From positions 20,634 to 84,633 of the forward strand of contig CAIOAT010000047.1 of NCBI GenBank assembly GCA_903856085.1: a stretch of DNA of 64,000 nt, given 5' to 3'. A model generated the notes under the pieces. That model made no database searches and was not told the origin of the DNA. It worked only from the letters and a program-made list of their open reading frames with translations. How positions within the stretch are numbered: position 1 is the first letter of the stretch; every line of letters begins with the position of its first letter. The position numbers were made by a program, and so were the translations under genes. The stretch is from Candidatus Omnitrophota bacterium (lineage in GTDB: Bacteria > Omnitrophota > Omnitrophia > Omnitrophales > Aquincolibacteriaceae). Shown here piece by piece: positions 1 through 64,000 of this stretch.

Positions 1-1
1 T

Positions 2-394
2 TCCGGTTGTGATGTCCGCGGTTTGGAGCCTAAGGAAAGAGAGGATTATCATGCTTTGTGGCAGGGGTTGGGGATAGCCAGCAAGATTGATGTCGGTCGG
101 ATCGAGCGGTTTAGACCCGTAGGATACCCCGCCACCTATGATTCTATTAGCGCTACGGGAATCTGTTTCGATAGGATAGATAATAACAAAGAAAACTTGT
201 GGGGAGTCGAGGAGTATGTTTTTTTTATCAAGGATGCCTGTGATCATTTGGAACCCGGGGGAGTTCTGTATTTTCGTTTCAATGAGCGGCCGCAAATAGA
301 AGTTTTTAATCTCTTCAAGAGCCTCAACGCTTGGGAGGGCGGGAACCGATTCCGCCTTCGGAGAGAGAATTTTCTAAAATCGCGGCATGCTTAA
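2..394 (+). CDS. Hypothetical protein, 5-prime partial; the frame is open back to position 2 with no in-frame stop. A HLEPGGVLYF segment weakly resembles the post-motif region of class I SAM-dependent methyltransferases.
   Basis: The ORF track frame extended by hand to the window edge; weak motif resemblance only. Confidence 0.3.
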   Translation, partial: SGCDVRGLEPKEREDYHALWQGLGIASKIDVGRIERFRPVGYPATYDSISATGICFDRIDNNKENLWGVEEYVFFIKDACDHLEPGGVLYFRFNERPQIEVFNLFKSLNAWEGGNRFRLRRENFLKSRHA

Positions 395-1469
395 AAAAAT
401 CAAAGCGTTAATAATCTTTCGAAATGTTTTTGGCGTTTCCCTCAATCAAATTTACCCTTTCCGCCTTTTAAAAAATCAATTAAAAAAAACCTTAGGGTTT
501 TATTTTTCAGAAAGGCCTGTCCAGACGCTAACGGATGTCGATATCGAAGAAGCGAATTCGCACGACATTGTTTTTATTCAACTTAAAATTCCTCCCGAGC
601 ATGTAGGCCAACTGAATGAAATGCTCGCGCAAATTTCTAGTCGTAAAGTTTTGCTCGATGATCGCGATAGTTCCGGACAATGTTCTTTTTCCGCAGTTCC
701 GCTGGTCAATCTTTATGTCAAAAAACAGGTTTTGCGAGATCTTAAGAATTACCAGACGCCCTATCGGGATGGCAGAATCCATGCTGACTTTATTGGAAAA
801 TCTTTTTCTTTAAGTTCTGCCGACCTTCCGCGCGTAAAAATTACCGAAGATTTTGAACAGAAGATTTTTACTGGGTGGAATATTGGCGTATCCGAAAGGC
901 TTCGCGGGAGGATTCCCCCCAATGCGGATTCTTTATTCGCAAAGAAGCGCACCGTTGATGTGTGCCTTAGGCTTTCTTTGAGGAACGATAAGGATTGGTG
1001 TTATGTCCATAGGAAAAAATGTTTCGAGGAAGTTCAAAAGCTGAGCGCTTCCATGAAAGTTGTTGTCTCCCAAGAAAATATTCCTCGTCCAGAATACTAC
1101 GAGGAATTGAGTCAGGCAAAAATATGTCCCTCTCCGTGGGGCTACGGGGAAGTGTGCTACAGAGATTTTGAGGCCATTTTGTCAGGAGCTTTGCTTATTA
1201 AGCCCTCCATGGAACATCTTGTGACCCATCCCAATATTTACATACCTTATGAAACATACGTGCCTACCAAGGTGGATTTTAGCGATCTGAATGATATTTG
1301 CAGGTATTATCTTCTTCATGAAAATGAGCGCGAGAGAATTGCCCGAAATGCCCTGCGTGCTTATAGCGACTATTTTGAAAAAAATATATTTCTTGGGCAG
1401 GTGCGAGAGATGTTAAGCCGGACGGGGTTTGAAACGGAGGGCCTTGCGCAGCGCGACTTTAACGGCTAA
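387..1469 (+). CDS. Putative glycosyltransferase (CgeB-like / GT1-like C-terminal region)
   Basis: 360 aa ORF; a C-terminal PWGYGE...RDFEAI...ERERIARNA pattern resembles the CgeB / GT-B glycosyltransferase C-terminal domain. Family assignment is tentative. Confidence 0.4.
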   Translation: MLKKIKALIIFRNVFGVSLNQIYPFRLLKNQLKKTLGFYFSERPVQTLTDVDIEEANSHDIVFIQLKIPPEHVGQLNEMLAQISSRKVLLDDRDSSGQCSFSAVPLVNLYVKKQVLRDLKNYQTPYRDGRIHADFIGKSFSLSSADLPRVKITEDFEQKIFTGWNIGVSERLRGRIPPNADSLFAKKRTVDVCLRLSLRNDKDWCYVHRKKCFEEVQKLSASMKVVVSQENIPRPEYYEELSQAKICPSPWGYGEVCYRDFEAILSGALLIKPSMEHLVTHPNIYIPYETYVPTKVDFSDLNDICRYYLLHENERERIARNALRAYSDYFEKNIFLGQVREMLSRTGFETEGLAQRDFNG

Positions 1470-1581
1470 ACTCACGTATTGGATTTTGCGCTGCCCGTAC
1501 TGTCTGCTTGACTTTGATTTGTCGGTAATCTTGAATGTGGTCAGCCGCTTGAAAAGTAATACAACTCCGGAGTACAACAAA

Positions 1582-2697
1582 ATGAAGATCGACATTATTC
1601 ACGCAACGGCAGGGGAAGGGCATCGCAAGATTGCGATGGCGGTCCAGGATAGCCTTGTGCGGCTTGGCCGAAGCGATCTTCAAGTCCGCTTGATGAACTG
1701 CCTGGACTATACCGACGCTGCTTTTCAGAAAACATACGCCCCTATTTATTACTGGTCCGTCCGGCATGCCCCGAGTCTTTGGGGCGGGAGCTACGAAGTG
1801 TTGGATCACGCGTGGGTCTATCAGCTTATCCGGCCACTGCGTTCTTTGACGAATTCGGTGCATGCGAAACGCCTTCTTGAAGATATTGTCAAAAATCAAC
1901 CTGATGTGATTGTCTCGACGCATTTTCTTCCGCCCGAGATCCTGGGCCGCGCCAAACAGAAGGGCTTGATAAAATCGAAAATGATCACGGTGATTACGGA
2001 TTTTTATCCCCACACGGTTTGGGTCAATCCCGGAACCGATCATTACTGGGTCATGGCCGATGAAACCAAACAAGATCTTATCCGCCGCGGTGTTTCCGAG
2101 GAAATGATCACTGCCGGTGGTATTCCCATCCTGCCGACCTTCCAACCTACGGGAAGGAAACGGGAGATCCTGAAAAAGCACGGCCTTGAGGACAATCGTT
2201 TCACGATCCTTCTTACAAGCGGCAGTTTCGGCCTCGGTCCGCAGGAGGCGATTCTGGAAGAACTTAAGACGTTCAAAGACAAGGTCCAATGTTTCGTGGT
2301 TTGTGCCAACAACAAAGAACTTAAGGCGCTCTTGGAGAGCAAGACTTATCCCTATCCCGTGAAGATCTTCGGCTTTATCGATTTCATGCCTGATCTCATG
2401 GAGGCGAGCGATCTCATGGTTGCGAAATCCGGTGGCTCTACGACCTCCGAAGCTTTGACTAAAGGTGTGGTGATGGTCATTATGGCGCCGATCCCCGGTC
2501 AAGAGACCCGGAATGTGAAGCTTCTTAAAATCCGCGATGCGGCGTATTTTTTGAATGATCCTCATGAAATCCACGGTATCGTCAAGGGCATCTTGGACGA
2601 TCCTTCAACTTTGCAGAAGAAGCGCGATGCCATCAGGCGCCTGGCAAAGCCTCATGCCTCTGAAGATCTCGTCAAGATGATCCTCGCCGGGAAATAG
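1582..2697 (+). CDS. MGDG-synthase / UgtP-like diacylglycerol glycosyltransferase (GT28, MurG-like fold)
   Basis: An MKIDIIHATAGEGHRKIAMAV N-terminus and a G-rich C-terminal GT-B signature (LTSGSFGLG ... AKSGGSTTSEAL) typical of the monogalactosyldiacylglycerol synthase family. The start is placed at the internal Met, which gives a typical ~370 aa length. Confidence 0.6.
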   Translation: MKIDIIHATAGEGHRKIAMAVQDSLVRLGRSDLQVRLMNCLDYTDAAFQKTYAPIYYWSVRHAPSLWGGSYEVLDHAWVYQLIRPLRSLTNSVHAKRLLEDIVKNQPDVIVSTHFLPPEILGRAKQKGLIKSKMITVITDFYPHTVWVNPGTDHYWVMADETKQDLIRRGVSEEMITAGGIPILPTFQPTGRKREILKKHGLEDNRFTILLTSGSFGLGPQEAILEELKTFKDKVQCFVVCANNKELKALLESKTYPYPVKIFGFIDFMPDLMEASDLMVAKSGGSTTSEALTKGVVMVIMAPIPGQETRNVKLLKIRDAAYFLNDPHEIHGIVKGILDDPSTLQKKRDAIRRLAKPHASEDLVKMILAGK

Positions 2698-2702
2698 TTC
2701 TC

Positions 2703-3416
2703 ATGCCGAAAAACGAGTCTCTCTTATTCCTGAAGACCTTGAAAGAAGACGGTATTGAGCACGTGTATGTTTCGAAGAAGAACGAACCGCGGATTTCTGT
2801 TTCGCGTACCGCAGACCTGCCATCGAACAAGCCGGAAACCGTAGACTGCAGTTCGAATGTCGATATCTCAGAACTTCGCGACAAGGTCCTGAAATGCAAA
2901 CTTTGTGCCGAACTCGCGAAGACCCGCAAAAAGGTTGTTTTTGGTTCCGGAAATCTTCAGGCCAAGCTTGTCTTTGTGGGTGAAGCTCCGGGAGCTGATG
3001 AAGATGAACAGGGGCTTCCTTTTGTCGGACGTGCCGGTCAGCTCCTGACCAAGATTATCGAAGCCATGGGGATGGCAAGGGACCAGGTATTCATTTGCAA
3101 TGTTCTCAAGTGCCGGCCGCCGAATAATCGTCCGCCTGCGCCGGGTGAAGTTGTTCACTGCCGGCCCTATCTCAAGCTCCAGCTCGAGCTCATTAAACCT
3201 AAGGTGATCGTGGCGCTTGGGAACCACGCGGTCAAAGCACTTCTGCAAACTGAACAGGGGATCTCGCAGTTGCGCGGTACGTTCCAGAAGTATGAAGGCA
3301 TTCCCGTCATGTGCACTTATCACCCCGCATATCTTCTTCGCAGTCCGGGCGAGAAACGCAAGGTTTGGGACGATATGAAGAAAGTTATCCGATTCCTTGA
3401 AAGGTCTGCGGATTGA
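2703..3416 (+). CDS. Uracil-DNA glycosylase, family 4
   Basis: GEAPGADEDEQGLPFVGRAGQLL motif (GE[AG]PG...PFVG), conserved Cys residues (CKLC...C) and HPAYLLR. Carries an N-terminal extension of about 40 aa relative to typical family-4 UDGs. Confidence 0.8.
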   Translation: MPKNESLLFLKTLKEDGIEHVYVSKKNEPRISVSRTADLPSNKPETVDCSSNVDISELRDKVLKCKLCAELAKTRKKVVFGSGNLQAKLVFVGEAPGADEDEQGLPFVGRAGQLLTKIIEAMGMARDQVFICNVLKCRPPNNRPPAPGEVVHCRPYLKLQLELIKPKVIVALGNHAVKALLQTEQGISQLRGTFQKYEGIPVMCTYHPAYLLRSPGEKRKVWDDMKKVIRFLERSAD

Positions 3417-50833: not shown

Positions 50834-52894
50834 ATGCAATTTTTCAGACCTGAACATTTAATTTTTTTATGGTTGGTGCCGACGGTACTGGCCTTCTATG
50901 TCTTTTCGCGAAGGCTATGGCAAAAGCGCATGCATCGGTTGGTTCAGGATGAAACACTCCTTTCCAAATTGATCGAGGGTTACAGGAAAAGCGAGTGGCT
51001 TATCCGTACGATTCTCATGACGCTTGCCGTGCTTTGTCTCGTGCTCGCGCTCGCACGTCCTCAATGGGGCGACGAAAAACGGAGGGCCCAGCGCAAGGGC
51101 GTAGACATCATTTTCATGGTCGACACATCTCTGAGCATGCTTGCAGAGGATATTAAGCCCAACCGCCTCGAAAAAGCCAAGTTTGAGATCGAAACCTTTA
51201 TCCGCAACCTTCGCGGCGACCGTATTGGCATGGTTACTTTTGCAGGTTCGGGATTTCTCCAAACACCGCTGACGCTCGATCATGCAGCCTTTCTCCTGTT
51301 TCTGGATGCCGTTCAAGTGGGATTTCTTCCGGATCCCGGGACATCACTCGTCCAAGCCTTCCAGTTGGCTTTGCGTGCCTTTCCCGAAAAGGAGCTCAAA
51401 TACAAAGCCTTGATCCTCTTTACGGACGGGGAAGACCATGAAGGCGGAATTGAAAAGACTATCGAAGAGGCCAAGCAGGCTAATATCAGGATCTATTGCG
51501 TAGGCCTTGGAACGGCGGAAGGGGAGCCCATCCCCCTCAAGAACGAAAGAGGGGAGCGATCGGGATTCAAGAAGGATCGAAATGGGCAAATGGTGCTCAC
51601 ACGGCTCAACCAGCCGCTTCTCGAACGGCTCGCCAAAGAAACGGGCGGGATCTACCTTCCCGCTTCGCCGTCAGAAAAAGAGGTCGATGTCATCTTAAAA
51701 CATCTTCGTGGGTGGGGAGAGCAGCAATTCGCAGAAAAAATGGTGGTGGAGCGCGAAGACCAATACCAAGGGTTCCTGATCCTCGCCCTAATCTTTCTGG
51801 CTGCCGAAATGCTTATCCGACGAAAAAACAGCAAAAGTCCGGCCTTGATGGCCTGCCTCGCTGTCTTTTTCCTTTTCACGGGATTTCTTGAGACCTCACA
51901 GGGTACGGTCAAAAAAGGTAACGATCACTTTCAAAACAAGCGCTTTCAATCCGCCCTTGATGCCTACCGCAAGGTTCAGGTCAAGAATCCTGACGCTCCG
52001 GAAGTGCTCTATGATCTTGGAACAACGCTCTACAAAGTTGACTCTTTTCAAGAATCGGCCCAGGATCTCGAGACCGCTTCTAAAACCGCCCAGGATCCGC
52101 AGCTGAAAGCCCGCGCGCTCTACAACGCTGGGAACGTCCAGTACAGGCTCGGAAATTTCGAAAAGGCCATTGATTCCTATAAAAAGGCTCTCGCCCTGGA
52201 CCCGAACGACAAGGACGCCAAGTATAATCTCGAATTCCTTCAAAAACAGAAGAACAAGATTGATAAAAAGGACAAAGATAAGAAGAAAGACGATCAGAAA
52301 AAAGACAAACAAAAGAAAGAGCAGCAGAAGAATAAGCAGGACCAAAAAGATCAACAAGATCAAAAAGATCAGCAACAACAGCAGCAACCTAAGCCTCAGG
52401 ATCAGCAGGATCAAAAAGATCAGCAACAACAGCAGCAACCTAAGCCTCAGGATCAGCAGGATCAAAAAGATCAGCAGCAACAGCAGCAACCGAAGCCTCA
52501 GGATCAGCAAGATCAAAAAGATCAACAGCAACAGCAGCAACCGAAGCCTCAGGATCAGCAAGATCAAAAAGATCAGCAACAGCAACAACAGCCTAAGCCT
52601 CAGGATCAGCAAGATCAAAAAGATCAGCAACAGCAACAACAACAGCAGCAACCTAAGCCTCAGGACCAGCAGGATCAACAGAAGGAGCAAGAGGAACAGC
52701 AAAACCCGCCGGAGCAGCAGAAAAGCCCTCAAGATGAGAGCCAAGGGCAATCCAAACGTCCGCTCCAGGGGCAGATGAGCATGGATAATGCCCTCAACCT
52801 ATTGGATGCTCTGAAAGAATCTGAAAAAGAGCTTCAGGACCTCCGTCGTCCACCGGTTAACAAGAATCCGCCGCCGGTGGATAAAGATTGGTAA
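50834..52894 (+). CDS. BatB-like VWA + TPR protein with an internal Gln-rich tandem-repeat region
   Basis: N-terminal TM helices, MIDAS DIIFMVDTSLSM, FTDGEDH, TPR repeats (ALYNAGNVQYRLGNFEKAIDSYKKALALDPND), then a 6 x 17-aa repeat. Confidence 0.8.
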   Translation: MQFFRPEHLIFLWLVPTVLAFYVFSRRLWQKRMHRLVQDETLLSKLIEGYRKSEWLIRTILMTLAVLCLVLALARPQWGDEKRRAQRKGVDIIFMVDTSLSMLAEDIKPNRLEKAKFEIETFIRNLRGDRIGMVTFAGSGFLQTPLTLDHAAFLLFLDAVQVGFLPDPGTSLVQAFQLALRAFPEKELKYKALILFTDGEDHEGGIEKTIEEAKQANIRIYCVGLGTAEGEPIPLKNERGERSGFKKDRNGQMVLTRLNQPLLERLAKETGGIYLPASPSEKEVDVILKHLRGWGEQQFAEKMVVEREDQYQGFLILALIFLAAEMLIRRKNSKSPALMACLAVFFLFTGFLETSQGTVKKGNDHFQNKRFQSALDAYRKVQVKNPDAPEVLYDLGTTLYKVDSFQESAQDLETASKTAQDPQLKARALYNAGNVQYRLGNFEKAIDSYKKALALDPNDKDAKYNLEFLQKQKNKIDKKDKDKKKDDQKKDKQKKEQQKNKQDQKDQQDQKDQQQQQQPKPQDQQDQKDQQQQQQPKPQDQQDQKDQQQQQQPKPQDQQDQKDQQQQQQPKPQDQQDQKDQQQQQQPKPQDQQDQKDQQQQQQQQQPKPQDQQDQQKEQEEQQNPPEQQKSPQDESQGQSKRPLQGQMSMDNALNLLDALKESEKELQDLRRPPVNKNPPPVDKDW
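52340..52690 (+). repeat. Imperfect 51-nt tandem repeat (~6.5 copies) within the BatB CDS encoding (PKPQDQQDQKDQQQQQQ)n
   Basis: Directly visible periodicity, with synonymous differences between copies (cct/ccg, cag/caa). Confidence 0.85.
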
Positions 52895-53021: not shown

Positions 53022-53468
53022 ATGAGCCTTATCGAGCAAATCGAAAAAGATATCATCGCAGCTATGAAAGCTAAGGAACCTGTTAAGGTCTCAACCTTAC
53101 GAATGCTTAAAAGCGCCCTTGGGAACCATCTGATCCAGGTCAAAAAAGACAAGCCAGAAGACGCGGATGTCCTCAGTATTATTGCTAAACAGGCGAAACA
53201 GCGTCGTGAAAGCGTTGAGAGTTTTGAGAAGGCTGGCCGCAAAGACCTTGCTGATAAAGAAAAGGACGAGTTAGCGATCCTGGAAACCTATTTGCCCAAG
53301 CAGTTGACTGACGAAGAGCTAGCGGGGGCAGTCCGAAATGCCATCGCTATATCAGGCGCTAAAAGCCCCGCAGACATAGGAAAACTCATGAAGGTCCTTA
53401 TGCCTTCTATTCAGGGTAAAGCCGATGGCAAACGCGTCCAGGACGCCGTAAAAGCCATCCTAAAGTAG
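53022..53468 (+). CDS. yqeY: GatB/YqeY domain protein
   Basis: 148 aa; MSLIEQIEKDIIAAMKAKE ... LRMLKSAL matches the YqeY family N-terminus; AAAGGAGAG RBS. Confidence 0.8.
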   Translation: MSLIEQIEKDIIAAMKAKEPVKVSTLRMLKSALGNHLIQVKKDKPEDADVLSIIAKQAKQRRESVESFEKAGRKDLADKEKDELAILETYLPKQLTDEELAGAVRNAIAISGAKSPADIGKLMKVLMPSIQGKADGKRVQDAVKAILK

Positions 53469-54242
53469 CCTTCCGAATACCTTCTTGGCAAGGCCAGTTC
53501 TCCCTGGGAACTACTTTACATAAGATACATTATAGGACGTGAATACTTCAGACGAAGCGTTCCTCCTATAGGGTTAAAGCACTGTGCCTGGTCTTGTAAT
53601 TCGAGCAACCCGGAGCAAGTAAATGATATCGTCGCGATCAATCCGAGAAGGTCACCCTCAACAAATTACAAGCCCTGGTCAACTGAAACGGATTAGCGCA
53701 GACACCCGTCAGGGCTTCTCGAGACGAAGCGCATTTTCCCGCACAAATTTAACGCTTTTTCAATAGAGAGGCTTGAAACGGTTCCGGAAGATTGTTCTTA
53801 GGTGACCTCTGCCCCTCCCATTTCGGAGTCAAGGCTATAAATAATATACTCGGGACCTGCCCGGAGACTGCCACTGAACATCCTTGATCCTTTTTGGCCA
53901 TAGACGACCAAAGACCGGTTTTTATCGACAGGACAGATTCGGGAGGATTATTAGAGGAAAAATTGCCGCCCCAAGAGCCATTACCTCGTGCGAACATCCA
54001 CGACAGATTTCATCACATACTCAAAACGGCTGGCCCATAAACCGAAGGGCTTGTTCTTGCACAATTCTCTTATCAACCGTTCAGTTTTCATTTTTATTCG
54101 CCTGTCATTTCTGCGACGCTCAGAACTCAACGCGGATTTGCGCGGAATAAACCAAGGATTTCAAAGAAAGAATAGGAAGTTCTTTGGGTTTAATCAGGGG
54201 CTTTATAACCCCTCGAGGCTTTTAGAAAATCTCGGGTAAAGC

Positions 54243-57200
54243 TTATGCCGCTGTAGCGACGGACTTTTGGGCGGCAACCTCGCCAAGGAGGGCCTTCATG
54301 AATTGGTTGGCAAAGAATGCGGCGACAGCATAATCGTTACCGACTTTGGGATTCTTGATGCCGGCGTGATCGATCACCAGGTCAATTCCGATGGTCGCAA
54401 TGGCATTGGTCGCCGCGGCAAGGGATTGCCGTCCTTCAGGGGTTTCAGCCCACTCCGGAGGATAGACAAAGGTGCCTTTATATCCCTTGCTCTGAACAGC
54501 CTCGCGCACCTGATCCAAGCTTAACGCGTTGCCAAGGAAGATCACGTGCTCCGGACTCACGCCTCGCAGCTTCAACTTTGCAACGATCTCTGGGATCTCA
54601 GCACCGATCTTATCAGGAGCAATGACCCTGACCCCCGGAACATCCTCGAAATTCTTATCTCCTACGACAAACACGTAAGGATTCGTGCGGGCAGCCATAG
54701 CATCAAGGGTCTTCATTTTCTCGACACTGCCGTTCACGATGATCTGCTGGGCAATCTCGACCATTTTGGCGTCGAACGGCTGGAGGGTCTCGGACTTGTT
54801 CCTCGCCATACTCACGAGAGCTTTGATCAGATCGATCTGCGAGCGGATACTTGCCGCGAATTCGGGATCCTCAGTCGCTATCTCCGGGTGATTCGCAAGG
54901 AGCGACCCCATGAACGCCGCGGTATCCTCGTAGGCCAAAAATTCCTGCTCAAGATCACCGAGGCGTTGATTTTCAGGGAGCGCGTGCGAATTCTCATGGA
55001 CCATGCCCCACGCCAAGGTAAATTGCACGCGCCGCTCCAGATTTGCGAGTTCTAGCTTCGAAAGCGTCTCGGACGCCAAGGCTTTGGTATAATCCGCGAG
55101 CTTATCGCCATTCAGAACCACTCCGCCATTCCGGAAATAGCCGACATGCCCCTGGATCAGCTCGCGCTCTTCAGGCGTTGTAGCCATCTTCCAATTCGCG
55201 CCCGCCCAATGATTTCCCTTATAGTTCTTCGCCATATCATAAGCCGCTCTCGCCACCTTATCTGCTGAATTCAACTCCGCTGGGGCAACCTCGGACGCAG
55301 AAACTCTCTTCGCTTCAGATCGCGGAGCTTCGACGGATCTCAATACCTCCGGCTCGTCCCGTAGTTCCGCGCGCGGAGAGTTCATTTTTTCAACAGACTT
55401 TTGCATCACGACGGAGGCCGGGGCGATATAATCGATATACTCCCTGCCATCCTCCCCCTTACGCTCCCCTGCCTTCGAGAAACCAAGCCGCTCGTACAGC
55501 TTGATCGCCTTGGTGTTCTTGGGCTCGACGGAAAGGGCGATCGGGACGCTTGAGAAACCTCTTTCTGAAAGGTTCTTCGCAAGGCCGTAGATCATCGCCG
55601 TCCCGAGTCCTGAGCCTTGGGCGGCTTGGGCCACACCCACGTTATAAATATAAGCCATGTCCCCCTGAATCGGAGCCGCCAGGAGATACCCTTGCACCTT
55701 TCCGTTCACTTCATAAACCATGCTAAATCCAGAGGCCGCATCTGCCTGCAAGATTTTTGCGAAGGATTCGGCAGAAAAATCTGTCAGTTCGTTCTGTTTC
55801 CCGGTCTCATCACTGACAGCAATGGCTTGTCTGATCCGATCACCTGAGGCAGAATTGAGAGCCCTAAAACTTCCCGGGAGCCCCGTCTCTTTCATATTGA
55901 GCGTTTCATTTTTCACGAGTTCACCGCGGAATTTTGCTAAAAATTGAGCGCTGAACTTTTGAGCGTCGGATCCGGCGGCCAGCATGGGATCGGCCCCCAT
56001 TCTTCCCAGGATATCCATCGCGAACATAGCCAACTGCTCCTTGACCATCTTCGCCTCGTCCGCTGATAAAGAAAATCCCGCATAGCTCGTATCCGTCAGG
56101 TTGCGAGCAACCTTCTCCAGATACCCCGGCAAAAACTGAGTCGCGATCATTGAAATGTGGCTCGCGATCAGATGTTTTCTCTCAGCCTCCTGGGCCTGCA
56201 GATCCGTCATCTTTTGCATGGCAATCCACTCAGGAGAAGCAAAGATCTCGCGCAGGAATGAGTGCAATTCCGCACCGATCAGCGACGCTTTCTTAAACAT
56301 AAAATCCTGTTTATCCCGGAAGCCGTAGATCCTTCCGTCGTAATCGAAAGCATGAAGATTATCCAGATCATGACCTTCTTCGTGGATCGCCGTATGCTTT
56401 TCGTAATTATTCAGCATGAATGTGTAGCGCAGATACTGTTGAGGTTTGCCGAACGGTTCGCTTGCTCCAGATTCTCCATCTTCCATAAAGAAACCGGCCG
56501 GTAAATGCTGGGGATCAAGAATAATATTGCCGCCAACACCATTAGCTTTGGGCTGGAAGGAAGCGTGCATCAGGGTTTCTTCATTCAGCCCGTATCTTGA
56601 GATCAGATGATCCAGGGAATCATCCAGGTTCTCCAGAATCCATTTCACCGCTTCCCGTTTAACGTTGGCGTCTGTGGAGTTCAACTTTTGGAGCATTTGA
56701 TCTTTCTCACGGTGCTCAAGAATGCTGATCATGCCTCGCAGTCCGCGTAACTTTTGAGCCGCCGCATCCGATCCAAATACGGACGTCAGAGCGACTTTTA
56801 GAGAAAGCATCAGCGTGCTTTCGTAATCCGCCCAATTTCCGGCCGCGGCAAGCGCATCGAGGTCGTTTTTCGCAGCTTCGGACAGATAGGGATCGAGCAA
56901 CGGACGGAGAAGGCGCCAAGCGCTCGGACGGCCTGTTCCGGAAATCGCAGGGTTATTTTCCAGGGTCTCGATGACAAGCGCTAGAAGGGCATTCGCGTTC
57001 CGAGGATCAAGGTTTTTGATCATTTCCGGATCGAGCAATTCGCCCTCCGGCGTAAGGAACCGGATCGAAAAACGATCGGACAAGTATTTACGGCGGGACT
57101 GATCGCGCATAACTTCATCCCGCGAAACGGGAGCAAGGGTTCTTCGTATGCCGGGCTGACCCATCCTGAAATAAACGGCAGTCATTTCAGAGATGCAGTC

Positions 57201-60200
57201 GGACGTACCGCAAAAAACAAGTTCGTCCCAAGAGCGGATGTTCCGACCGTTCAAAGCCAGGCCGTTGCGCACCGCATCCGCATAATTTCCTTTAAGACTC
57301 GTCCGGACTTCGAAAGCGTATCTTTCAAACTCAGCACGGCTCGGATTCGTCAAAACGGTAAGCGACTGATCGGCGTGTCCTGCGGGCGATCTGAGCCGCA
57401 TCCGCTCCAAATCCATGGCGGCATAGAGGCGGTTCGCGGCATCGCGGCGAAGCAATGCCTGCGCCCAGTCAACGCGGCCTTCCGCGATAAGGTTATTGAT
57501 CAGCTCGGCTGTTTGTTGCGAGGTAAAATTCCTGGGAATAAAATAACCTCCCAGACCGTCCATGACAACCCGCATCAGGTCGTCTACGGACCTGAATTGA
57601 TGGAAAGCGATCAGGTCATCCAGGCTCGTCGCGTTGCGCCGTATCCGGGCTACGATCCCCGAAACAGTTATGTTGTGTGCCTGAAGAGCTGCAGCAAATT
57701 CCGTGCCTGGCTGATCCTGTTCCTTAAGGATATCCTCAAGCCGGAAGAGAGAATCAAGAGCTTGCTGAACTCTTTCTCTCATCGCGCGCGCAGCCTTCTC
57801 GCGCCAGCCCACGACGTAGCCGCTCGGGTTCTTCGGGTCAGTGTAGAGCCGAAGTTTTTCAACGATCTCTCGGCGATCGTAAATATGGGCCTCGTCCGGA
57901 TCGTAAACACGGCCGTGTTGTTGGGCATAGAAGGTCAGGAGCTCTTCTAAGAGATTCTGGTCTGTATCGCGGAAGTCAGATCCCTCGAGACCTCTGGGAT
58001 CATTAAAGTGGATCGTTTCATGCAACCATGACGGTTGATAGTACTGTTCGGACAGCAAGATCACAGGGAGTTTTTCAAAAATCGTCCCTTTGAAAGTGCC
58101 TACCGATTGGGTATTACTGCCAAACCATCCAGGGTTGGTAACAGGCATCCAGCCGGCGGCTCTAAGTTGTTTTTCAATCTTATAGGGCATCACAACCGAC
58201 AGCGTCGGATGGTCCGAAATATTCTCCTGGATCATATAGGCCCTGCGGTAGTACACCTCTTGCTCGCGGACGCTAAGGGACTCCCACATTTTCCCGTCCC
58301 TTTCAGCAAGAGATTTCGCGAAAGAAATAAATTCAGCGTCTCCCTTACGGAAAGCGAGTTCAGGAATAGGAACATCCAAGTTTTCCGATGGACTGGCCGT
58401 TACGACCTTGATGCCGATCAGCATTTCGGGCGTGATCGCGGAACCGGCCGGCATTTTAACGTTAAGAATTTTTGCCAGTTCTTCACGCGCTTTCAGATTC
58501 TCCGGAGAATTTTCGGGAGAATTCAATCCGTTCACGATCTGATCATTAATTTGATCGATAATACCTAGCCGCGCATTGAGCACATCCTCTGAAAGCTCAA
58601 GCGGCGGCTCGCCCACAAGCGTCACGGCACGATCCTTATTCCGGGCGAAATGCAGGATATCCGAGCGCAGGAAGTCCTGTCCTTTGCGACGATCGCGATT
58701 CTCCCGGTTGATCGACAGCAACAGGTCGGAAAGACCGGGCGCAATAGCATCCAGACGGCCTTGCATTTCCTCACGAAGTTTGCTGTCCATAATCGTTCGC
58801 GCTTTCTCGATCTCTGTGTAAGCCCTCCCGAATTTCACAACATCCTCAGTGGAGACACCGGCGATTTGCAGGGGCTCTACAGCCTTCTGGAGTTTCCCTT
58901 GAATCTCCTGCGCGGCAGCCGAATTTTTATCTTCGATGGCGCTGAGCTGTTCAAAAAGCGTCCGGATTTCCAGAAGCTGGAAAATCGTAAGATTGGTTTG
59001 TTTTCCGATCTGCTCGAGTTCCTTTTTCGCTTCGTTGCTTTCCTGCTCGACTTGTCTGACCACACTGTTGAGCTCGATCTCCGGCACCAGTTTTTCTCCG
59101 GCTTTAATGCGCTGCATGAGTTCAGCCTTAGGCGCATTCTGGATCGCCACGTAGGCAAGCATCAGCGCGGTCCAGGAATTGACCGGGACCTTTTGTTCGC
59201 GAATAGCCTTCATGATATCGCTCAGCACCATCTGGCGGCGAAACTCTGTCGAAAAGAACCCACCCACCACACGACCGAAAGCGCGGGAAATCATCATTAA
59301 GTTGCCAAATTCCCCTTTCTCGGTCCGGAACTTGTTGTCCCTCTTGATCAGCCATGTAGAAAGTGCGACACCCATTGCAAGGCCTGACGCCCACCCACTC
59401 ATGAAAACAAGGGCCGCCGGCAACAGAGGTGCCGCCAGGACCGAGACGAGCAAGGTAGGACCAAGAGTGACCGCAACCGCCAAGGTGGCGGCAACCAAAC
59501 CAAGTCCGATGCTGCCCGACGTCAGGAGCCCGTAATTACCGATCATGGTCGCTATCTTCCACGACCATTTCTGTCCCATCGTAAGCTCCGCTGCCAGGGC
59601 ATAGCGGCCCTGGTTGGACTGGAGATTCGCGATGACAGGTCTAAGATTCTCGAGAGCCGCGATTTCAGCTTTAAGTTTGGCATCATCGGCAGCTTCATCC
59701 ACGGGTTGGCCTTCTGCCTTCCTAGCCGCCTGGTCCTTCAGGGCTTTTTCGATAAGGGATTGGCGCATACTCGCCAAGACGTCGTCCACGCCAGTCTTGG
59801 ATCCCAGGCGCGCATCGACAAAATCGCGCTTCTGCTTGATGAGCTGATCGAGTTCTGTGAGGCTAAGCTTTAACACCTTTGGATTTTTCGCGGCATATTC
59901 CTGAAGCTCGTCGGCATTGCGATAAGCCGACTGATGATCCCAATGGATCACGTGAGCCAGGTTCAGGAACGCGAACATCGTCTTCCAGATGGCCGCTTCA
60001 TAGGCGGCCTCATCGCCAAACGCTTGCTTGTCCCCCACAAGCTTTATCGCCACTTTGCGCACATCGCCCAGGGAATCATAACGGGCTTTGCCAAACTGGA
60101 AAGCATCCATCAGCGAGACTCCAAGCACCGTTCCGAGAGTCACGGCAACAGCCGATCCCAGGAGCAGCGGTAGCAGCGCGACACCAAAGATAAGACCCGC

Positions 60201-63200
60201 CCAAGGCACGGCTACAGCGGCAACAACCGCTGCGGGAATGGCTGCTCTTGCCCATTTGTTCTCTGTCAGGAACCGCGATGTCTTCGTCAGCATTTGAGAC
60301 GCGCTGAATTTGAATTTTTTCCACCCGCGCTGGAACCGGCTTGCACCTTCGGACTCTGTTTTCTGGTAGTCAAGCCAGAACTTTCTCTGCGTCTGATAAT
60401 CCTTCTGATCACGTTCGAATTGACTGATCATTCCGTCATAGATCCGGTGCATTTCACGAAGGATCTTGGGATCAGAAACCTTGCCCATGGCTAATTGAAC
60501 CAATGCCACGGAGAAGGCCTGTTCGCGGTTCCGATCAAGGGACGCGGCATTGCGGGCGGTAAGCGCCGTGCGGAAGTCGGCCACGGACAACGCTCTGGCG
60601 TCAAAGACCGTTTCCTCCTGGAAATTCCCGAACTTGGCGAGGTAATCAAGCGCCGTGGAATCGATCTCAGCGGCGTTGTAAAAACCAAGATCAATCATCT
60701 GCCGAACGAAGAACAGGGCTTCTTTTGAAGCATCGCCCGCTTCACCTTGAGGGACTAATCCGAGCAATTTCTGCAGCATGCTGTTGAGTTGCCCCCCTTG
60801 CGGTTCCCCGAGACGCTTGGCAAGCGCTGACACGAGCGCGAGGATCTTCTCGCCCTGCGAATTGAGGTTACCTTGAGCGTCGAATCCTCCGTTGGCTTCA
60901 ATGAGCTCCCGATGGGCGGCTGCTAATGCTTCCGCTGCCGCGGTTTCCGCCGTTACGTCAAGCGTCTGGGCCGCCCTTTCCATTCCCTCCCGGGTCTGGA
61001 TCGCTGCCTGCATTCCTGCAGAGGCACGAGGCGCAGTCTGGGTCGCCTTCATATCATGGGGACCAACCACCTGACCCGCAACTTCCACAAACCGGACAAT
61101 GTCGCCCTGTGAACCGACGCCTTCGTCATGTTTGTGCTGACGTTCAAATTCCTGGGCCTTCGCAAGAAGCTCCTGATAGGTTTTTTGATCCTGTATCCGA
61201 GCCTCAAGTTCCTTGAGGCGGTTACCTTGCTCTTCGCTAGGTGTCGCAAGCCCCTTCAGTTGCCCGAGCTCGGTCATTTCCGCGGCTGTCAGCTGATCGA
61301 ACCACACGGGATCGATATCTTTTAAGCCCTGGAGGCGACGGAACTCGGTTGTTTCTTCGGCCGTCATTTTCGCACCGGCAAGTTTCAGCACGATCTCAGC
61401 ATTCGCGGTGAGGGCCCGTTCCGCCACCAGCAGTTTGTTTTCCGGGGAGACAACGGACGAGTCACTCACTTCCGTCCACAGCTCACGAGCCTCATCCAGC
61501 ATCCGGTTGAGCCTCATTTGAAGCACATCCACGGCCTCCGACTCTTTCTTCGGCCGTTCCCAGCTATCGTTTTTACTGAGAGAATTCTGGATCTCCATCA
61601 GTTTTTGAGCGAAAAATCCCTGCTCCTCTGGGGTCTTGGAATTCTGGATAAGCTGACGGAAGAAATTTTCGGCTTCGGCTTCCAACGCTTCCATCATGCT
61701 GTTAAAGGTGGCCCGCTCGCCCTCAGGATCGTTTTCCGCATTCATCCAGGTCCAAAAAGCCTGGATCCGCTCGGCATCGGTCTTGGCCTCTTCGATCTTC
61801 CCTCCGAATCTTTTTCCGACCGCCACAATGTAAGGCGAAGGCACTTTAAAATCCTGGAGAGAAAAGACCTGATCCAGCTTGGTGCCAAAATAGATCTTCA
61901 TCCTGTCGTTCAGGTTCTGGTTCTGGGCCGCCAATTTTTCATTGGAGAAGCGCTCATGATTGCCGAGGTAATTGAACTGCCAGACGTAGGGGGCTTCACG
62001 CGAAGGCACATCGCCTTTTCTATACACGGACTCGCCGGTAGCCGTATTGATCTCCCAGTAACCCACGGCTTGCCCCTTCACGAGGTCACGGACGACCGCG
62101 ATCAGAGCTCCGTCGCCCATTCCGACAAACTGCCCTTTATTATCCTTCAGGAATTCTGTCGCGGTTCCCGCTTCAGCCTTATGAATAATGCCTTTTTCGT
62201 CCGTATAAGTGAGCGCGTCATGACTATAGGCATAATGAGCAAACTCGTCCAGTTTGGCTGCGACACCGCGGAGACGTCCCAACAACTGGTCCAGCATTTC
62301 CATGTCCACGCCTTCACCGACAAGCATTGCCGGCACCGTCGTGTTATCCATCATCATGCTGAACCCAACCGTTCTTTGCGTAAACAGAACCCGGCGCTTC
62401 GTACTGAGCTCCGTTCCGGCCAACTGCTGTCCTAACCTCTCCGCGAACCATTGGTTTTTAAGTTCTTTATACTCCGTCGCGTCTCCTTGTTCACTTATGA
62501 GCACCGGCACTTCATAGCCCGACCCATCCGCCTTCAGGCGGTAAACCTTGAAGCCGCCTTCTTCGTCGATAACCACCTCTTCAATCTTGTGAGCCAGAGC
62601 CTCCCGCAAAACCTCCCCGATAGCATTGGTCACATGGTCTTGTGTCACCGCACTAAAAATAGCAAGATTCTTTGGTTGACCGTCCGCCTCCATGGATTTC
62701 ATATATTTTTCGAAGACATTTCCGATAGCCTTCCGGATGTCGCCCGCCCCCGAGATCTGATAACCATGCAACCGGGCTTCGGCATTAAGCGCCATATACC
62801 GCTGTGCCGCGCGAACCGTAGCGGAAACGACCCCGAAAATAGCCCGGAACGACTGCCCGAATTTTTGCACCGTCGCGGACGTAAAAATGGCATTACCGCC
62901 AAGCCGGCGGATACTGTCGACTATGATGCTCAGTTGGGTTTGAAGTCCAAACCCCGATACTTCCACATTCCGCTGCGGGTTCGCCTCAGCGCCCTCCAGA
63001 GGCTTGAAGATCATTTCAAGCGCAACGGAATAGGATGCGGAATGGAAAGTCATCCTGGGTTCGGCCTTGTTCTGGGAAAAGGGTGCTACTTTATAGATCC
63101 ATTTCTTATTCCCCTGTTTATCCTGCGTCTCGTACCAAACCACCGTAACGCCTTGCCCGCCCTCAGCCCGCTGGCTCTGCATCAAAGCCATCGCCCACTG

Positions 63201-64000
63201 ATTCGCTGCATCACGGACATCCCGATGCGCAATATCTTGAGACTCGTTGAACTTCTGCCATGTCTCTTCGGGGGTTTTACCCTTGAATTTTCCACCGCCC
63301 ACCTCTTCGGCGATGAAGGCCTGGAAAGCGTCGGTGAACATAAAACGCTTGTTCGGAAATTCCTTAACCACTTCACGCATTTTGAGGTTCAAAACATTGG
63401 CGATCGCTTTAGCGGTCAGAACCCTCTTCTCCAGCTCCGAGTATTCTTTGGTTAAATTAACAAGCTCATCGAGTCTGGACTTCTGTTCTTTGGACAGGCT
63501 GGGCAATGCCTCGAGAGTTGCTTTTTCGGTCTCATGCTGCGTTTTTTGTTCGGTCAGCCATTTGAAGCGATCCACTTCGCTGGGAGTCTTGGCGCCCGGA
63601 CGGTCCTTGAGGACCAGCTTACTTAATTCTTTCCAAGCCTGGGTAGCGCTCATCGAAAAAGCTTTGTCTGTCTTCGGATCCGTCCACTCGATCGGAATGC
63701 CCTCTTTATCAAGCCATTTCAGGAGCAAAGTCCGTATCAGCGCGCCGTTTCTGGCTTCCGTGACAGTCGCTCCCCGGGTCCCGCCACCTTCGCGGAAATG
63801 CTTATTAAAGAGCAACTGCGATTCATCAAAAAGCGCGAGTGAGCGACCGAAAATTTCCTGGAAAGCCGTCTGGACCTCGGGAGATTTGATCGTCCCTAAC
63901 GTAAGGAAACCCAGTGAGCTGAAGGTGATATCGACGATCTTAGCGTTCGTGATCCGGCTCAGTATATCCGTTACGACAGCCGCATCCCCGCTTTGCAGTT
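54243..64000 (-). CDS. Giant multi-domain membrane protein, 5-prime partial (at least 3250 codons; the ORF is still open at the window end). It has a long N-terminal region of unknown function, 2+3 predicted TM helices, a C-terminal region containing a GNAT acetyltransferase fold and three HExxH motifs, and a C-terminal alpha/beta domain.
   Basis: An uninterrupted 9.75 kb reading frame on the minus strand. The track start at 63815 is a TTG, and hand translation shows no in-frame stop from 63816 to 64000. Motif positions are given in the findings. Confidence 0.85.
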   Translation of the reverse strand, partial: LQSGDAAVVTDILSRITNAKIVDITFSSLGFLTLGTIKSPEVQTAFQEIFGRSLALFDESQLLFNKHFREGGGTRGATVTEARNGALIRTLLLKWLDKEGIPIEWTDPKTDKAFSMSATQAWKELSKLVLKDRPGAKTPSEVDRFKWLTEQKTQHETEKATLEALPSLSKEQKSRLDELVNLTKEYSELEKRVLTAKAIANVLNLKMREVVKEFPNKRFMFTDAFQAFIAEEVGGGKFKGKTPEETWQKFNESQDIAHRDVRDAANQWAMALMQSQRAEGGQGVTVVWYETQDKQGNKKWIYKVAPFSQNKAEPRMTFHSASYSVALEMIFKPLEGAEANPQRNVEVSGFGLQTQLSIIVDSIRRLGGNAIFTSATVQKFGQSFRAIFGVVSATVRAAQRYMALNAEARLHGYQISGAGDIRKAIGNVFEKYMKSMEADGQPKNLAIFSAVTQDHVTNAIGEVLREALAHKIEEVVIDEEGGFKVYRLKADGSGYEVPVLISEQGDATEYKELKNQWFAERLGQQLAGTELSTKRRVLFTQRTVGFSMMMDNTTVPAMLVGEGVDMEMLDQLLGRLRGVAAKLDEFAHYAYSHDALTYTDEKGIIHKAEAGTATEFLKDNKGQFVGMGDGALIAVVRDLVKGQAVGYWEINTATGESVYRKGDVPSREAPYVWQFNYLGNHERFSNEKLAAQNQNLNDRMKIYFGTKLDQVFSLQDFKVPSPYIVAVGKRFGGKIEEAKTDAERIQAFWTWMNAENDPEGERATFNSMMEALEAEAENFFRQLIQNSKTPEEQGFFAQKLMEIQNSLSKNDSWERPKKESEAVDVLQMRLNRMLDEARELWTEVSDSSVVSPENKLLVAERALTANAEIVLKLAGAKMTAEETTEFRRLQGLKDIDPVWFDQLTAAEMTELGQLKGLATPSEEQGNRLKELEARIQDQKTYQELLAKAQEFERQHKHDEGVGSQGDIVRFVEVAGQVVGPHDMKATQTAPRASAGMQAAIQTREGMERAAQTLDVTAETAAAEALAAAHRELIEANGGFDAQGNLNSQGEKILALVSALAKRLGEPQGGQLNSMLQKLLGLVPQGEAGDASKEALFFVRQMIDLGFYNAAEIDSTALDYLAKFGNFQEETVFDARALSVADFRTALTARNAASLDRNREQAFSVALVQLAMGKVSDPKILREMHRIYDGMISQFERDQKDYQTQRKFWLDYQKTESEGASRFQRGWKKFKFSASQMLTKTSRFLTENKWARAAIPAAVVAAVAVPWAGLIFGVALLPLLLGSAVAVTLGTVLGVSLMDAFQFGKARYDSLGDVRKVAIKLVGDKQAFGDEAAYEAAIWKTMFAFLNLAHVIHWDHQSAYRNADELQEYAAKNPKVLKLSLTELDQLIKQKRDFVDARLGSKTGVDDVLASMRQSLIEKALKDQAARKAEGQPVDEAADDAKLKAEIAALENLRPVIANLQSNQGRYALAAELTMGQKWSWKIATMIGNYGLLTSGSIGLGLVAATLAVAVTLGPTLLVSVLAAPLLPAALVFMSGWASGLAMGVALSTWLIKRDNKFRTEKGEFGNLMMISRAFGRVVGGFFSTEFRRQMVLSDIMKAIREQKVPVNSWTALMLAYVAIQNAPKAELMQRIKAGEKLVPEIELNSVVRQVEQESNEAKKELEQIGKQTNLTIFQLLEIRTLFEQLSAIEDKNSAAAQEIQGKLQKAVEPLQIAGVSTEDVVKFGRAYTEIEKARTIMDSKLREEMQGRLDAIAPGLSDLLLSINRENRDRRKGQDFLRSDILHFARNKDRAVTLVGEPPLELSEDVLNARLGIIDQINDQIVNGLNSPENSPENLKAREELAKILNVKMPAGSAITPEMLIGIKVVTASPSENLDVPIPELAFRKGDAEFISFAKSLAERDGKMWESLSVREQEVYYRRAYMIQENISDHPTLSVVMPYKIEKQLRAAGWMPVTNPGWFGSNTQSVGTFKGTIFEKLPVILLSEQYYQPSWLHETIHFNDPRGLEGSDFRDTDQNLLEELLTFYAQQHGRVYDPDEAHIYDRREIVEKLRLYTDPKNPSGYVVGWREKAARAMRERVQQALDSLFRLEDILKEQDQPGTEFAAALQAHNITVSGIVARIRRNATSLDDLIAFHQFRSVDDLMRVVMDGLGGYFIPRNFTSQQTAELINNLIAEGRVDWAQALLRRDAANRLYAAMDLERMRLRSPAGHADQSLTVLTNPSRAEFERYAFEVRTSLKGNYADAVRNGLALNGRNIRSWDELVFCGTSDCISEMTAVYFRMGQPGIRRTLAPVSRDEVMRDQSRRKYLSDRFSIRFLTPEGELLDPEMIKNLDPRNANALLALVIETLENNPAISGTGRPSAWRLLRPLLDPYLSEAAKNDLDALAAAGNWADYESTLMLSLKVALTSVFGSDAAAQKLRGLRGMISILEHREKDQMLQKLNSTDANVKREAVKWILENLDDSLDHLISRYGLNEETLMHASFQPKANGVGGNIILDPQHLPAGFFMEDGESGASEPFGKPQQYLRYTFMLNNYEKHTAIHEEGHDLDNLHAFDYDGRIYGFRDKQDFMFKKASLIGAELHSFLREIFASPEWIAMQKMTDLQAQEAERKHLIASHISMIATQFLPGYLEKVARNLTDTSYAGFSLSADEAKMVKEQLAMFAMDILGRMGADPMLAAGSDAQKFSAQFLAKFRGELVKNETLNMKETGLPGSFRALNSASGDRIRQAIAVSDETGKQNELTDFSAESFAKILQADAASGFSMVYEVNGKVQGYLLAAPIQGDMAYIYNVGVAQAAQGSGLGTAMIYGLAKNLSERGFSSVPIALSVEPKNTKAIKLYERLGFSKAGERKGEDGREYIDYIAPASVVMQKSVEKMNSPRAELRDEPEVLRSVEAPRSEAKRVSASEVAPAELNSADKVARAAYDMAKNYKGNHWAGANWKMATTPEERELIQGHVGYFRNGGVVLNGDKLADYTKALASETLSKLELANLERRVQFTLAWGMVHENSHALPENQRLGDLEQEFLAYEDTAAFMGSLLANHPEIATEDPEFAASIRSQIDLIKALVSMARNKSETLQPFDAKMVEIAQQIIVNGSVEKMKTLDAMAARTNPYVFVVGDKNFEDVPGVRVIAPDKIGAEIPEIVAKLKLRGVSPEHVIFLGNALSLDQVREAVQSKGYKGTFVYPPEWAETPEGRQSLAAATNAIATIGIDLVIDHAGIKNPKVGNDYAVAAFFANQFMKALLGEVAAQKSVATAA

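Follow-up and report, generated by a model that had tools for sequence, protein, structure and literature searches.

The main question for the giant proteins of Omnitrophota is on which side of the membrane they lie, since the answer decides between surface coats or prey-degrading machines on the one hand and cytoplasmic scaffolds on the other. We approached this question for a 64,000-nt stretch of DNA from a Candidatus Omnitrophota bacterium (contig CAIOAT010000047.1; the whole stretch is called the window in the following), which carries on its minus strand the 3′ part of a giant gene coding for two clusters of hydrophobic residues. The initial annotation of this locus had assigned two and three transmembrane (TM) helices to the clusters and had predicted from the odd number that the N- and C-terminal regions of the protein lie on opposite sides of the membrane. 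Our analysis confirmed the hydrophobic nature of both segments, whereas the charges flanking them, the paired clusters of related proteins and a GNAT acetyltransferase domain on the same chain favoured an even number of helices. This outcome, which the annotation itself had named as refuting its model, is the likelier one, though not proven.

Two hydrophobic clusters near the C-terminus of a giant protein

The visible part of the giant gene comprises 3,251 codons and a stop codon (54243..63998, minus strand). Starting from the minus-strand stop codon at 54243-54245, the frame stays open over 9,753 nt up to the last complete codon at the end of the window (63998). Residue numbers from 1 to 3251 are counted from the window edge and correspond to the numbering of the open reading frame (ORF) list plus 61. 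The locus was placed on the JGI contig Ga0114951_10000020 (218,192 bp) via the exact sequence of a neighbouring VWA/TPR protein of 686 amino acids (aa). On this contig, the giant gene is annotated on the minus strand with a product of 47,762 aa and reaches to within one base of the contig end (start at record position 74903; adding 3 × 47,762 nt leads to 218,189). In an ENA assembly with a 215-kb contig, the product has 46,558 aa and is likewise cut at the contig end. The giant protein is at least 47,762 aa long, and this value is only a lower bound for the full gene because both contigs end inside it. The gene is also present at locus L001 (13410-22061), and both assemblies break within it. 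As judged from DnaK, the organism is a member of the Omnitrophota: the DnaK encoded in the window is 97% identical to that of the Candidatus Omnitrophota metagenome-assembled genome JBAZER01, and the 15 best genome matches, with 86-97% identity, belong to Omnitrophota/Omnitrophica or to unnamed metagenome-assembled genomes, compared to at most 70% for other phyla.

Cluster 1 (RAAIPAAVV...SLMDAF) covers residues 1251-1300 (60099..60248, minus strand) and contains a charge-free core of 46 aa. Cluster 2 (GLLTSGSIG...STWLI) covers 62 aa from residue 1490 to 1551 (59346..59531, minus strand) and is part of a charge-free run of 70 aa, beginning at residue 1482 (window position 59555). Minus-strand translation yields ENKWARAAIPAAVV...SLMDAF for positions 60099-60263 and WKIATMIGNYGLL...STWLI for positions 59346-59561. 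The peptides given in the initial annotation were correct, but cluster 2 ends at 59346 instead of 59390, and the soluble linker separating the clusters (residues 1301-1489; 59532..60098, minus strand) measures 189 aa rather than about 210 aa. The linker contains 14% K+R and 14% D+E, and its ends are rich in K/R beside each cluster. Because no stop codon interrupts the frame as far as the edge of the window and the same gene codes for 47,762 aa on Ga0114951_10000020, the clusters do not lie in the middle of the protein, where they had been placed, and are found 1,705-2,000 aa from the C-terminus of a product of at least 47,762 aa, corresponding to the last ~4% of its visible length.

The hydrophobicity of the chain was analysed using the Kyte-Doolittle, GES and Hessa scales. 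Among the 3,251 visible residues, the 19-residue Kyte-Doolittle mean exceeded 1.6 at these two segments only. Because the maximum 19-residue peak of shuffled sequences averaged 1.99, a single peak of this size is not significant, and the significance stems from how long the clusters are. The runs of 46 and 70 residues without any D, E, K or R compare with a longest run of 24 residues on average and 45 at most in 1,000 shuffles, and the 45-residue hydropathy peaks of 2.07 and 1.82 compare with a shuffle maximum averaging 1.10 (standard deviation 0.19) and with values of at most 0.69 elsewhere in the visible protein. Because of these statistics and the precedent in this class of proteins, both segments are best read as membrane-embedded helices tethering the protein, and the anchoring role proposed in the initial annotation is upheld.

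A strain variant of the giant gene (L094) was 99.7% identical over 2,525 residues and differed from the window by 27 synonymous and 8 non-synonymous codons over the 2,525 codons compared. The ratio of non-synonymous to synonymous changes (dN/dS) is roughly 0.1, and the giant gene is under purifying selection. The only change within cluster 2 was from Gly to Val. Because 99.7% identity is too close, this variant is uninformative on the conservation of the TM segments beyond the overall purifying selection.

It is very improbable that the clusters lie outside a membrane, whether in the interior of a soluble domain or as a functionless low-complexity tract. Cluster 1 is indeed rich in Ala, Gly, Val and Leu (24% Ala, 10% Gly), and single-sequence AlphaFold2 drew it within one long helix at low confidence. 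However, 50-70 contiguous apolar residues do not make soluble cores, and both charge-free runs are longer than those of all shuffles, in a protein with about 26% charged residues outside the clusters. Moreover, belts of aromatic and Lys/Arg residues border the clusters (KWSWK..., ...TWLIKRDNKFR), cluster pairs recur at an equal position in relatives which are otherwise unalignable there, and the gene is under the purifying selection noted above.

Flanking charges and paired clusters in related giant proteins

Because of its charge-free core of 46 aa, cluster 1 fits two helices, as assigned before, and is too short for three. The putative tight turn is located near L-P 1276-1277. The three helices assigned to cluster 2 were not established from the sequence, and two or three are possible: the cluster shows breaks at GP 1513-1514, PLLP 1524-1527 and SG 1534-1535, and its geometry fits helices of 23, 19 and 17 residues as well as two long helices.

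The initial annotation had proposed the positive-inside rule as a check on the flanking loops. Counting K+R over 15 residues on either side, the two flanks of cluster 1 contain 4 and 3, and those of cluster 2 contain 2 and 5; over 25 residues, the corresponding numbers are 7, 6, 3 and 7. Inside either cluster there is no charge at all, the putative turns included. A model with two helices in each cluster and all flanks inside places 14 flanking K/R inside and 0 outside, compared to 9:5 or 5:9 for the two orientations of a model with two and three helices. By this rule, the flanking charges therefore favour an even local number of helices, contrary to the odd number predicted before. The region of ~440 aa containing the two clusters with their clear charge asymmetry is short and clonable, and thus practical for testing the topology.

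A second indication came from the GNAT acetyltransferase domain at residues 2741-2856 (55431..55778, minus strand; Pfam E value 4e-14), which contains an acetyl-CoA motif, QGSGLG, at residue 2794. A GNAT domain with an intact QxxGxG motif needs acetyl-CoA, which is a cytoplasmic cofactor, and this argues for a location of the C-terminal 1,700 aa in the cytoplasm. If this end of the chain is inside, an arrangement of two plus three helices would require the export of the 189-aa linker together with at least 1,250 aa of TM-free sequence upstream of cluster 1.

Because the TM region and the linker yielded no sequence homologue in the searched databases, relatives were sought via the conserved neighbour gene yqeY (window 53022-53468). 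The giant gene of the window is convergent with yqeY, which lies downstream of the DnaK and MoxR/Bat operon. Giant genes convergent with yqeY were also found at loci L088 (20,128 aa) and L095 (9,554 aa), both of which are complete, at L083 (21,902 aa, cut at the contig end), L085 (5,235 aa, cut), L089 (6,305 aa, cut) and L092 (6,264 aa, cut), and on one ENA contig (15,793 aa); L090 and L091 were added by a metagenome scan with a three-sequence C-terminal alignment. The window protein, L083, L085, L088-L092 and L095 have a C-terminal domain of about 370 aa in common, which occupies the last 370 aa of the window protein (54246..55355, minus strand) and contains an invariant HExxH motif (HENSH, 54984-54998). 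In the C-terminal alignments, H139, E140 and H143 are invariant and the chains end with V-A-x-A-A; every member has its HExxH motif 217-263 aa before the C-terminus. The tail is almost invariant, with the pattern ...Q(Q/K)(V/S)A(V/T)AA-stop and, in the window, the sequence ...QKSVATAA-stop. Pfam searches of three relatives resulted only in a weak sub-threshold SprT-like match in L085.

Outside the C-terminal domain, the divergence of the giant gene is extreme relative to its neighbours. The DnaK and YqeY proteins from the L085 genome are 93% and 83% identical to those of the window, whereas the C-terminal 3,162 aa of the L085 giant protein showed no BLAST or phmmer similarity to the window protein, and only the terminal motif was recovered in the multiple alignment.

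Hydrophobic clusters of comparable size were nevertheless present in three of these proteins. The clusters of the window (50 and 62 aa, spaced by 189 aa, 1,705-2,000 aa from the C-terminus) correspond to clusters of 43 and 46 aa in L085 (spacing 167 aa, 1,230-1,486 aa from the C-terminus), 51 and 46 aa in L088 (spacing 25 aa, 1,725-1,847 aa from the C-terminus) and 46 and 38 aa in L095 (spacing 27 aa, 1,897-2,008 aa from the C-terminus). The clusters are paired in every positive case, and all of them are of two-helix size except cluster 2 of the window. The loop joining the two clusters contains 4 K/R in L088 and 5 K/R in L095, and the outer flanks are basic as well, which suggests a four-helix unit with both ends inside (N-in/C-in) in these two proteins.

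The tail shared by the family is reminiscent of ssrA-like tags, which mark a C-terminus for degradation or recognition, and three shorter proteins of 1,500-2,000 aa found by HMMER (P0121-P0123) end similarly, with ...VRASA, ...FMAAA and ...FARSA.

Weighing helix number and sidedness

We consider it moderately probable that the two clusters form two helical hairpins with a total of four helices (2+2), both ends of each hairpin being cytoplasmic. An arrangement with two helices in cluster 1 and three in cluster 2 (2+3), in which the chain would switch sides at cluster 2 and its C-terminal 1,700 aa would lie in the other compartment, appears rather unlikely. It draws on the 62 hydrophobic residues of cluster 2 (70 if the entire charge-free run is counted), on the Pro/Gly breaks at about thirds of this length and on a glycine zipper in its last third, and it agrees with published TMHMM-based localisations of most domains of these proteins outside the cell. 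However, all four flanks are rich in K/R, and any model of this type leaves 5-9 of these residues outside. The clusters of the relatives, with lengths of 38-51 aa, are of two-helix size, and L088 and L095 appear to form four-helix units with short, K/R-rich loops. The third segment of cluster 2 is the weakest in Hessa-type sums (+1.7 to +2.8 kcal/mol, compared to about 0 for the first segment), although these sums contain no length or position terms and cannot discriminate between two and three helices. With the GNAT domain inside, moreover, the linker and the long upstream region would have to be exported, as set out above. Finally, the local helix count is silent on an N-terminus more than 44,500 aa away: because at least 44,500 residues upstream lie outside the window and proteins of at least 30,000 aa average about 48 TM helices, the parity of the whole protein is unreadable from two clusters.

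Several points weigh against the assignment of two hairpins. With its 62-70 aa, cluster 2 also fits three helices of 17-23 aa separated by Pro/Gly turns (GP 1513-1514, SG 1534-1535), and these turns are of the same tight style as the one in cluster 1. A GxxxGxxxG motif at residues 1535-1543 suggests that the last third of cluster 2 also packs within the membrane. The positive-inside rule is statistical and becomes weaker with long loops. The single-sequence AlphaFold2 models of residues 1180-1620 and 1455-1590, which broke cluster 2 only once, at AAP 1522-1524, and in this favour two helices, served as a weak hint only, being computed without an alignment and reaching pLDDT values (predicted local distance difference test) of 51 and 58, respectively. 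A greedy TopPred-style scan with the GES scale was inconsistent, assigning a single helix to cluster 1 but two to cluster 2; it was rejected as unreliable because it also reported several "certain" segments in plainly soluble regions. Five of the nine family members lack a strong cluster, namely L083, L089, L090 and L092 over their last 2,400-3,100 aa and L091 over its 870 visible aa. Because no homologue of the TM region of the window was detectable, its sequence is not backed by conservation. Finally, TMHMM-based localisation has put the vast majority of detected giant-protein domains outside the cell, although its authors call the predictions unreliable, since TMHMM and DeepTMHMM differ in how many helices they predict and where they place them (bioRxiv 10.1101/2023.11.21.568195).

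If the preferred arrangement of two hairpins holds, each cluster would consist of two TM helices connected by a very tight uncharged turn at the outer face, and the hairpins would staple a cytoplasmic polypeptide onto the inner membrane. The parts facing the cytoplasm would be the visible upstream region of 1,250 aa, the linker of 189 aa and the C-terminal region of 1,700 aa with its three HExxH modules, the GNAT domain and the conserved C-terminal domain. Because such hairpins would export almost no loop, no large hydrophilic domain would need to be translocated. The near-zero exported loops would thus be compatible with co-translational insertion of a polypeptide with tens of thousands of residues, presumably by a route of the YidC/signal recognition particle (SRP) type. 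The downstream HExxH modules would act at the membrane face and might, as a speculation, process the chain itself.

Only tentatively do we extend this to the syntenic family, and perhaps to the Omnitrophota giants generally: their TM elements may be paired hairpins pinning an essentially cytoplasmic mega-polypeptide, and the conserved C-terminal succession of two hairpins and a gluzincin-like HExxH module may constitute a membrane-docked processing unit. If this is true, the published TMHMM localisations of most domains outside the cell would result from errors of parity, and the giant proteins would represent intracellular membrane-tethered enzyme scaffolds rather than surface coats.

C-terminal modules, known systems and neighbourhood

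The first HExxH module follows about 440 aa after cluster 2 and comprises residues 1900-2150 (57549..58301, minus strand), with the motif HETIH at 58008-58022. Residues H, H, EE, Q, K and Y of this module are invariant across eight sequences (alignment A4), and of these, H, H and EE are reminiscent of a gluzincin motif. In one family member, HExxH is replaced by HAEKH. When 1.84 billion representative proteins were searched exhaustively by HMMER with residues 1000-2199, 3 matches resulted, all of them in this module, whereas the TM region and the linker matched nothing. The HELCHFN module of L095 is homologous to the HETIHFN module of the window (blastp E value 9e-6; alignment A4), and the order of a cluster pair followed by HExxH is common to both proteins, with a distance of about 280 aa in L095 and about 440 aa in the window. 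Searching the Protein Data Bank (PDB) with a profile of the module pointed to anthrax lethal factor (E value 0.003), which was rejected because the HExxH motif aligns to YEQVH in the non-catalytic part of that protein. A second HExxH motif, HEEGH (residues 2539-2543; 56370..56384, minus strand), was recognized as a motif in the sequence only. Together with the HENSH motif of the C-terminal domain, three HExxH motifs are located within the last 1,260 aa. Cysteine occurs only twice among the 3,251 visible residues, at C2263 and C2268, with a distance of five residues.

Pfam, NCBIfam and PDB sequence searches of the visible protein returned the GNAT domain only. No match was obtained with the whole 3,251-aa query against 5.8 billion proteins, and scans of genome and metagenome collections with degenerate peptides from the whole protein recovered no relative.

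TM segments in such a protein are expected in themselves. Giant genes of Omnitrophota with dozens of TM helices have already been described (bioRxiv 10.1101/2023.11.21.568195; bioRxiv 10.64898/2026.06.07.730766; PMC10066038), among them one for a protein of Velamenicoccus archaeovorus with 39,678 aa and 42 predicted TM helices (PMC10066038). DeepTMHMM predicted TM helices or a signal peptide in 94% of 916 long proteins, with about 2% of the residues in TM helices and one helix per 370-1,000 aa; proteins of at least 30,000 aa contain about 48 TM helices on average, and 46% of the 916 proteins have TM helices without a signal peptide, most of the chain being predicted to lie at the cytoplasmic face (bioRxiv 10.64898/2026.06.07.730766). 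Because published giants show such a TM content, 4-5 helices in 3,251 residues are what would be expected. West-Roberts et al. (2023) distinguished "Archaeovorin" and "Dockerin-type" giant proteins in Omnitrophota, the former with many TM helices and sugar-metabolism domains, the latter with dockerin, TSP3 and discoidin domains, and both with GNAT (bioRxiv 10.1101/2023.11.21.568195). The window protein shares with the Omnitrophota giants the phylum, a product of more than 30,000 aa, the GNAT domain, few annotatable domains, very fast divergence and sparse recurrent TM segments (4-5 helices in 3,251 aa, about 3.5% of the residues, compared to the published ~2%), and with the Dockerin-type the TM anchors close to the C-terminus. 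It differs in that the part visible in the window, covering the last 3,251 aa only, contains no SecA_DEAD (no Pfam match at E values up to 1), dockerin, TSP3 or C39 domain; a divergent SecA_DEAD/SecA preprotein-binding domain is described for most, but not all, Omnitrophota giants. Neither the conserved C-terminal HExxH domain with its ...VA(T/V)AA tail nor a hairpin-sized cluster pair upstream of an HExxH module was found by term searches in the two giant-protein preprints (bioRxiv 10.1101/2023.11.21.568195; bioRxiv 10.64898/2026.06.07.730766). We regard the paired-hairpin pattern and the conserved C-terminal HExxH domain of this syntenic, fast-evolving family as modest additions to these reports.

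Several smaller systems show elements of the same design. F-ATPase subunit c and M13 procoat are small helical hairpins inserted by YidC, and the predicted hairpins of the window share with them the pair of hydrophobic helices, the minimal length of the exported loop and the positive cytoplasmic flanks; while those are whole small proteins, the hairpins of the window would be internal modules among thousands of residues. FtsH, HtpX/M48 and BlaR1/M56 are membrane-anchored zinc metalloproteases with their HExxH site facing the cytoplasm. As in these enzymes, a set of TM segments precedes HExxH in the window protein and L095 (in the predicted order 2TM, 2TM, HExxH 280-440 aa further on), but neither Pfam nor PDB gave a match to these families, the distances along the chain are much larger, and catalysis by the HExxH modules is only predicted.

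The Inc proteins of Chlamydiae offer a third comparison; the Omnitrophota are usually placed with the Planctomycetota-Verrucomicrobiota-Chlamydiota (PVC) group. Inc proteins comprise a hundred to about a thousand residues, are secreted by type III systems and inserted into a host-derived membrane, and have a charge-free bilobed segment of 40-60 aa, read as two helices with a tight turn and both flanks on one side. The clusters of the window share only the shape of this hydrophobic element; they differ in that the chain around them has at least 47,762 aa, and neither a type III context nor sequence similarity was seen.

Together with the buried hydrophobic hairpin of pore-forming colicins and the T domain of diphtheria toxin, the Inc element is a precedent for a further explanation, according to which the clusters are latent insertion hairpins that enter a prey or host membrane after processing or delivery instead of anchoring the protein permanently in the producer. 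We consider this improbable. The form of the clusters would fit, as they are charge-free bilobed segments of 40-60 aa within a long helical soluble sequence, and the three HExxH modules could process the chain. Omnitrophota have also been proposed to be predators or parasites, and their giant proteins to act on prey (bioRxiv 10.1101/2023.11.21.568195; PMC10066038). However, the searches revealed no similarity in sequence or fold to the colicin, diphtheria toxin or Inc families, and the window, with its other genes being housekeeping genes, showed neither a secretion signal nor a delivery system. The flanks rich in K/R are the signature of ordinary inner-membrane insertion. The GNAT domain on the same chain likewise points to the cytoplasm of the producer.

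The remaining genes of the window are housekeeping genes, coding for RecA, AlaRS, enzymes of His and Trp biosynthesis, RecG, SMC, DnaK and the MoxR/Bat operon. No convincing ORF was recognized in the 775-nt stretch between the convergent stop codons of yqeY and the giant gene (53469-54242). The slot 3′ of yqeY is variable among the relatives: the giant gene is replaced by a cluster of radical-SAM, B12-binding and glycosyltransferase genes in L086 and L087 (10881-20447) and by IS21-type and Mu-type transposase genes in L093 (10664-13965), phage-like genes occupy its position on a contig of ENA ERZ1426829, and a ParE/Phd toxin-antitoxin pair is inserted ahead of it in L092 (10814-12984). The VWA/TPR protein used for placing the locus is BatB-like and encoded next to yqeY (50834-52894, plus strand). 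It contains a perfect tandem repeat at about residues 500-620, consisting of about 5 copies of the unit QQQQQPKPQDQQDQKDQ, which is rich in Gln, Asp, Lys and Pro, and its length varies by strain between 651, 668, 685 and 686 aa.

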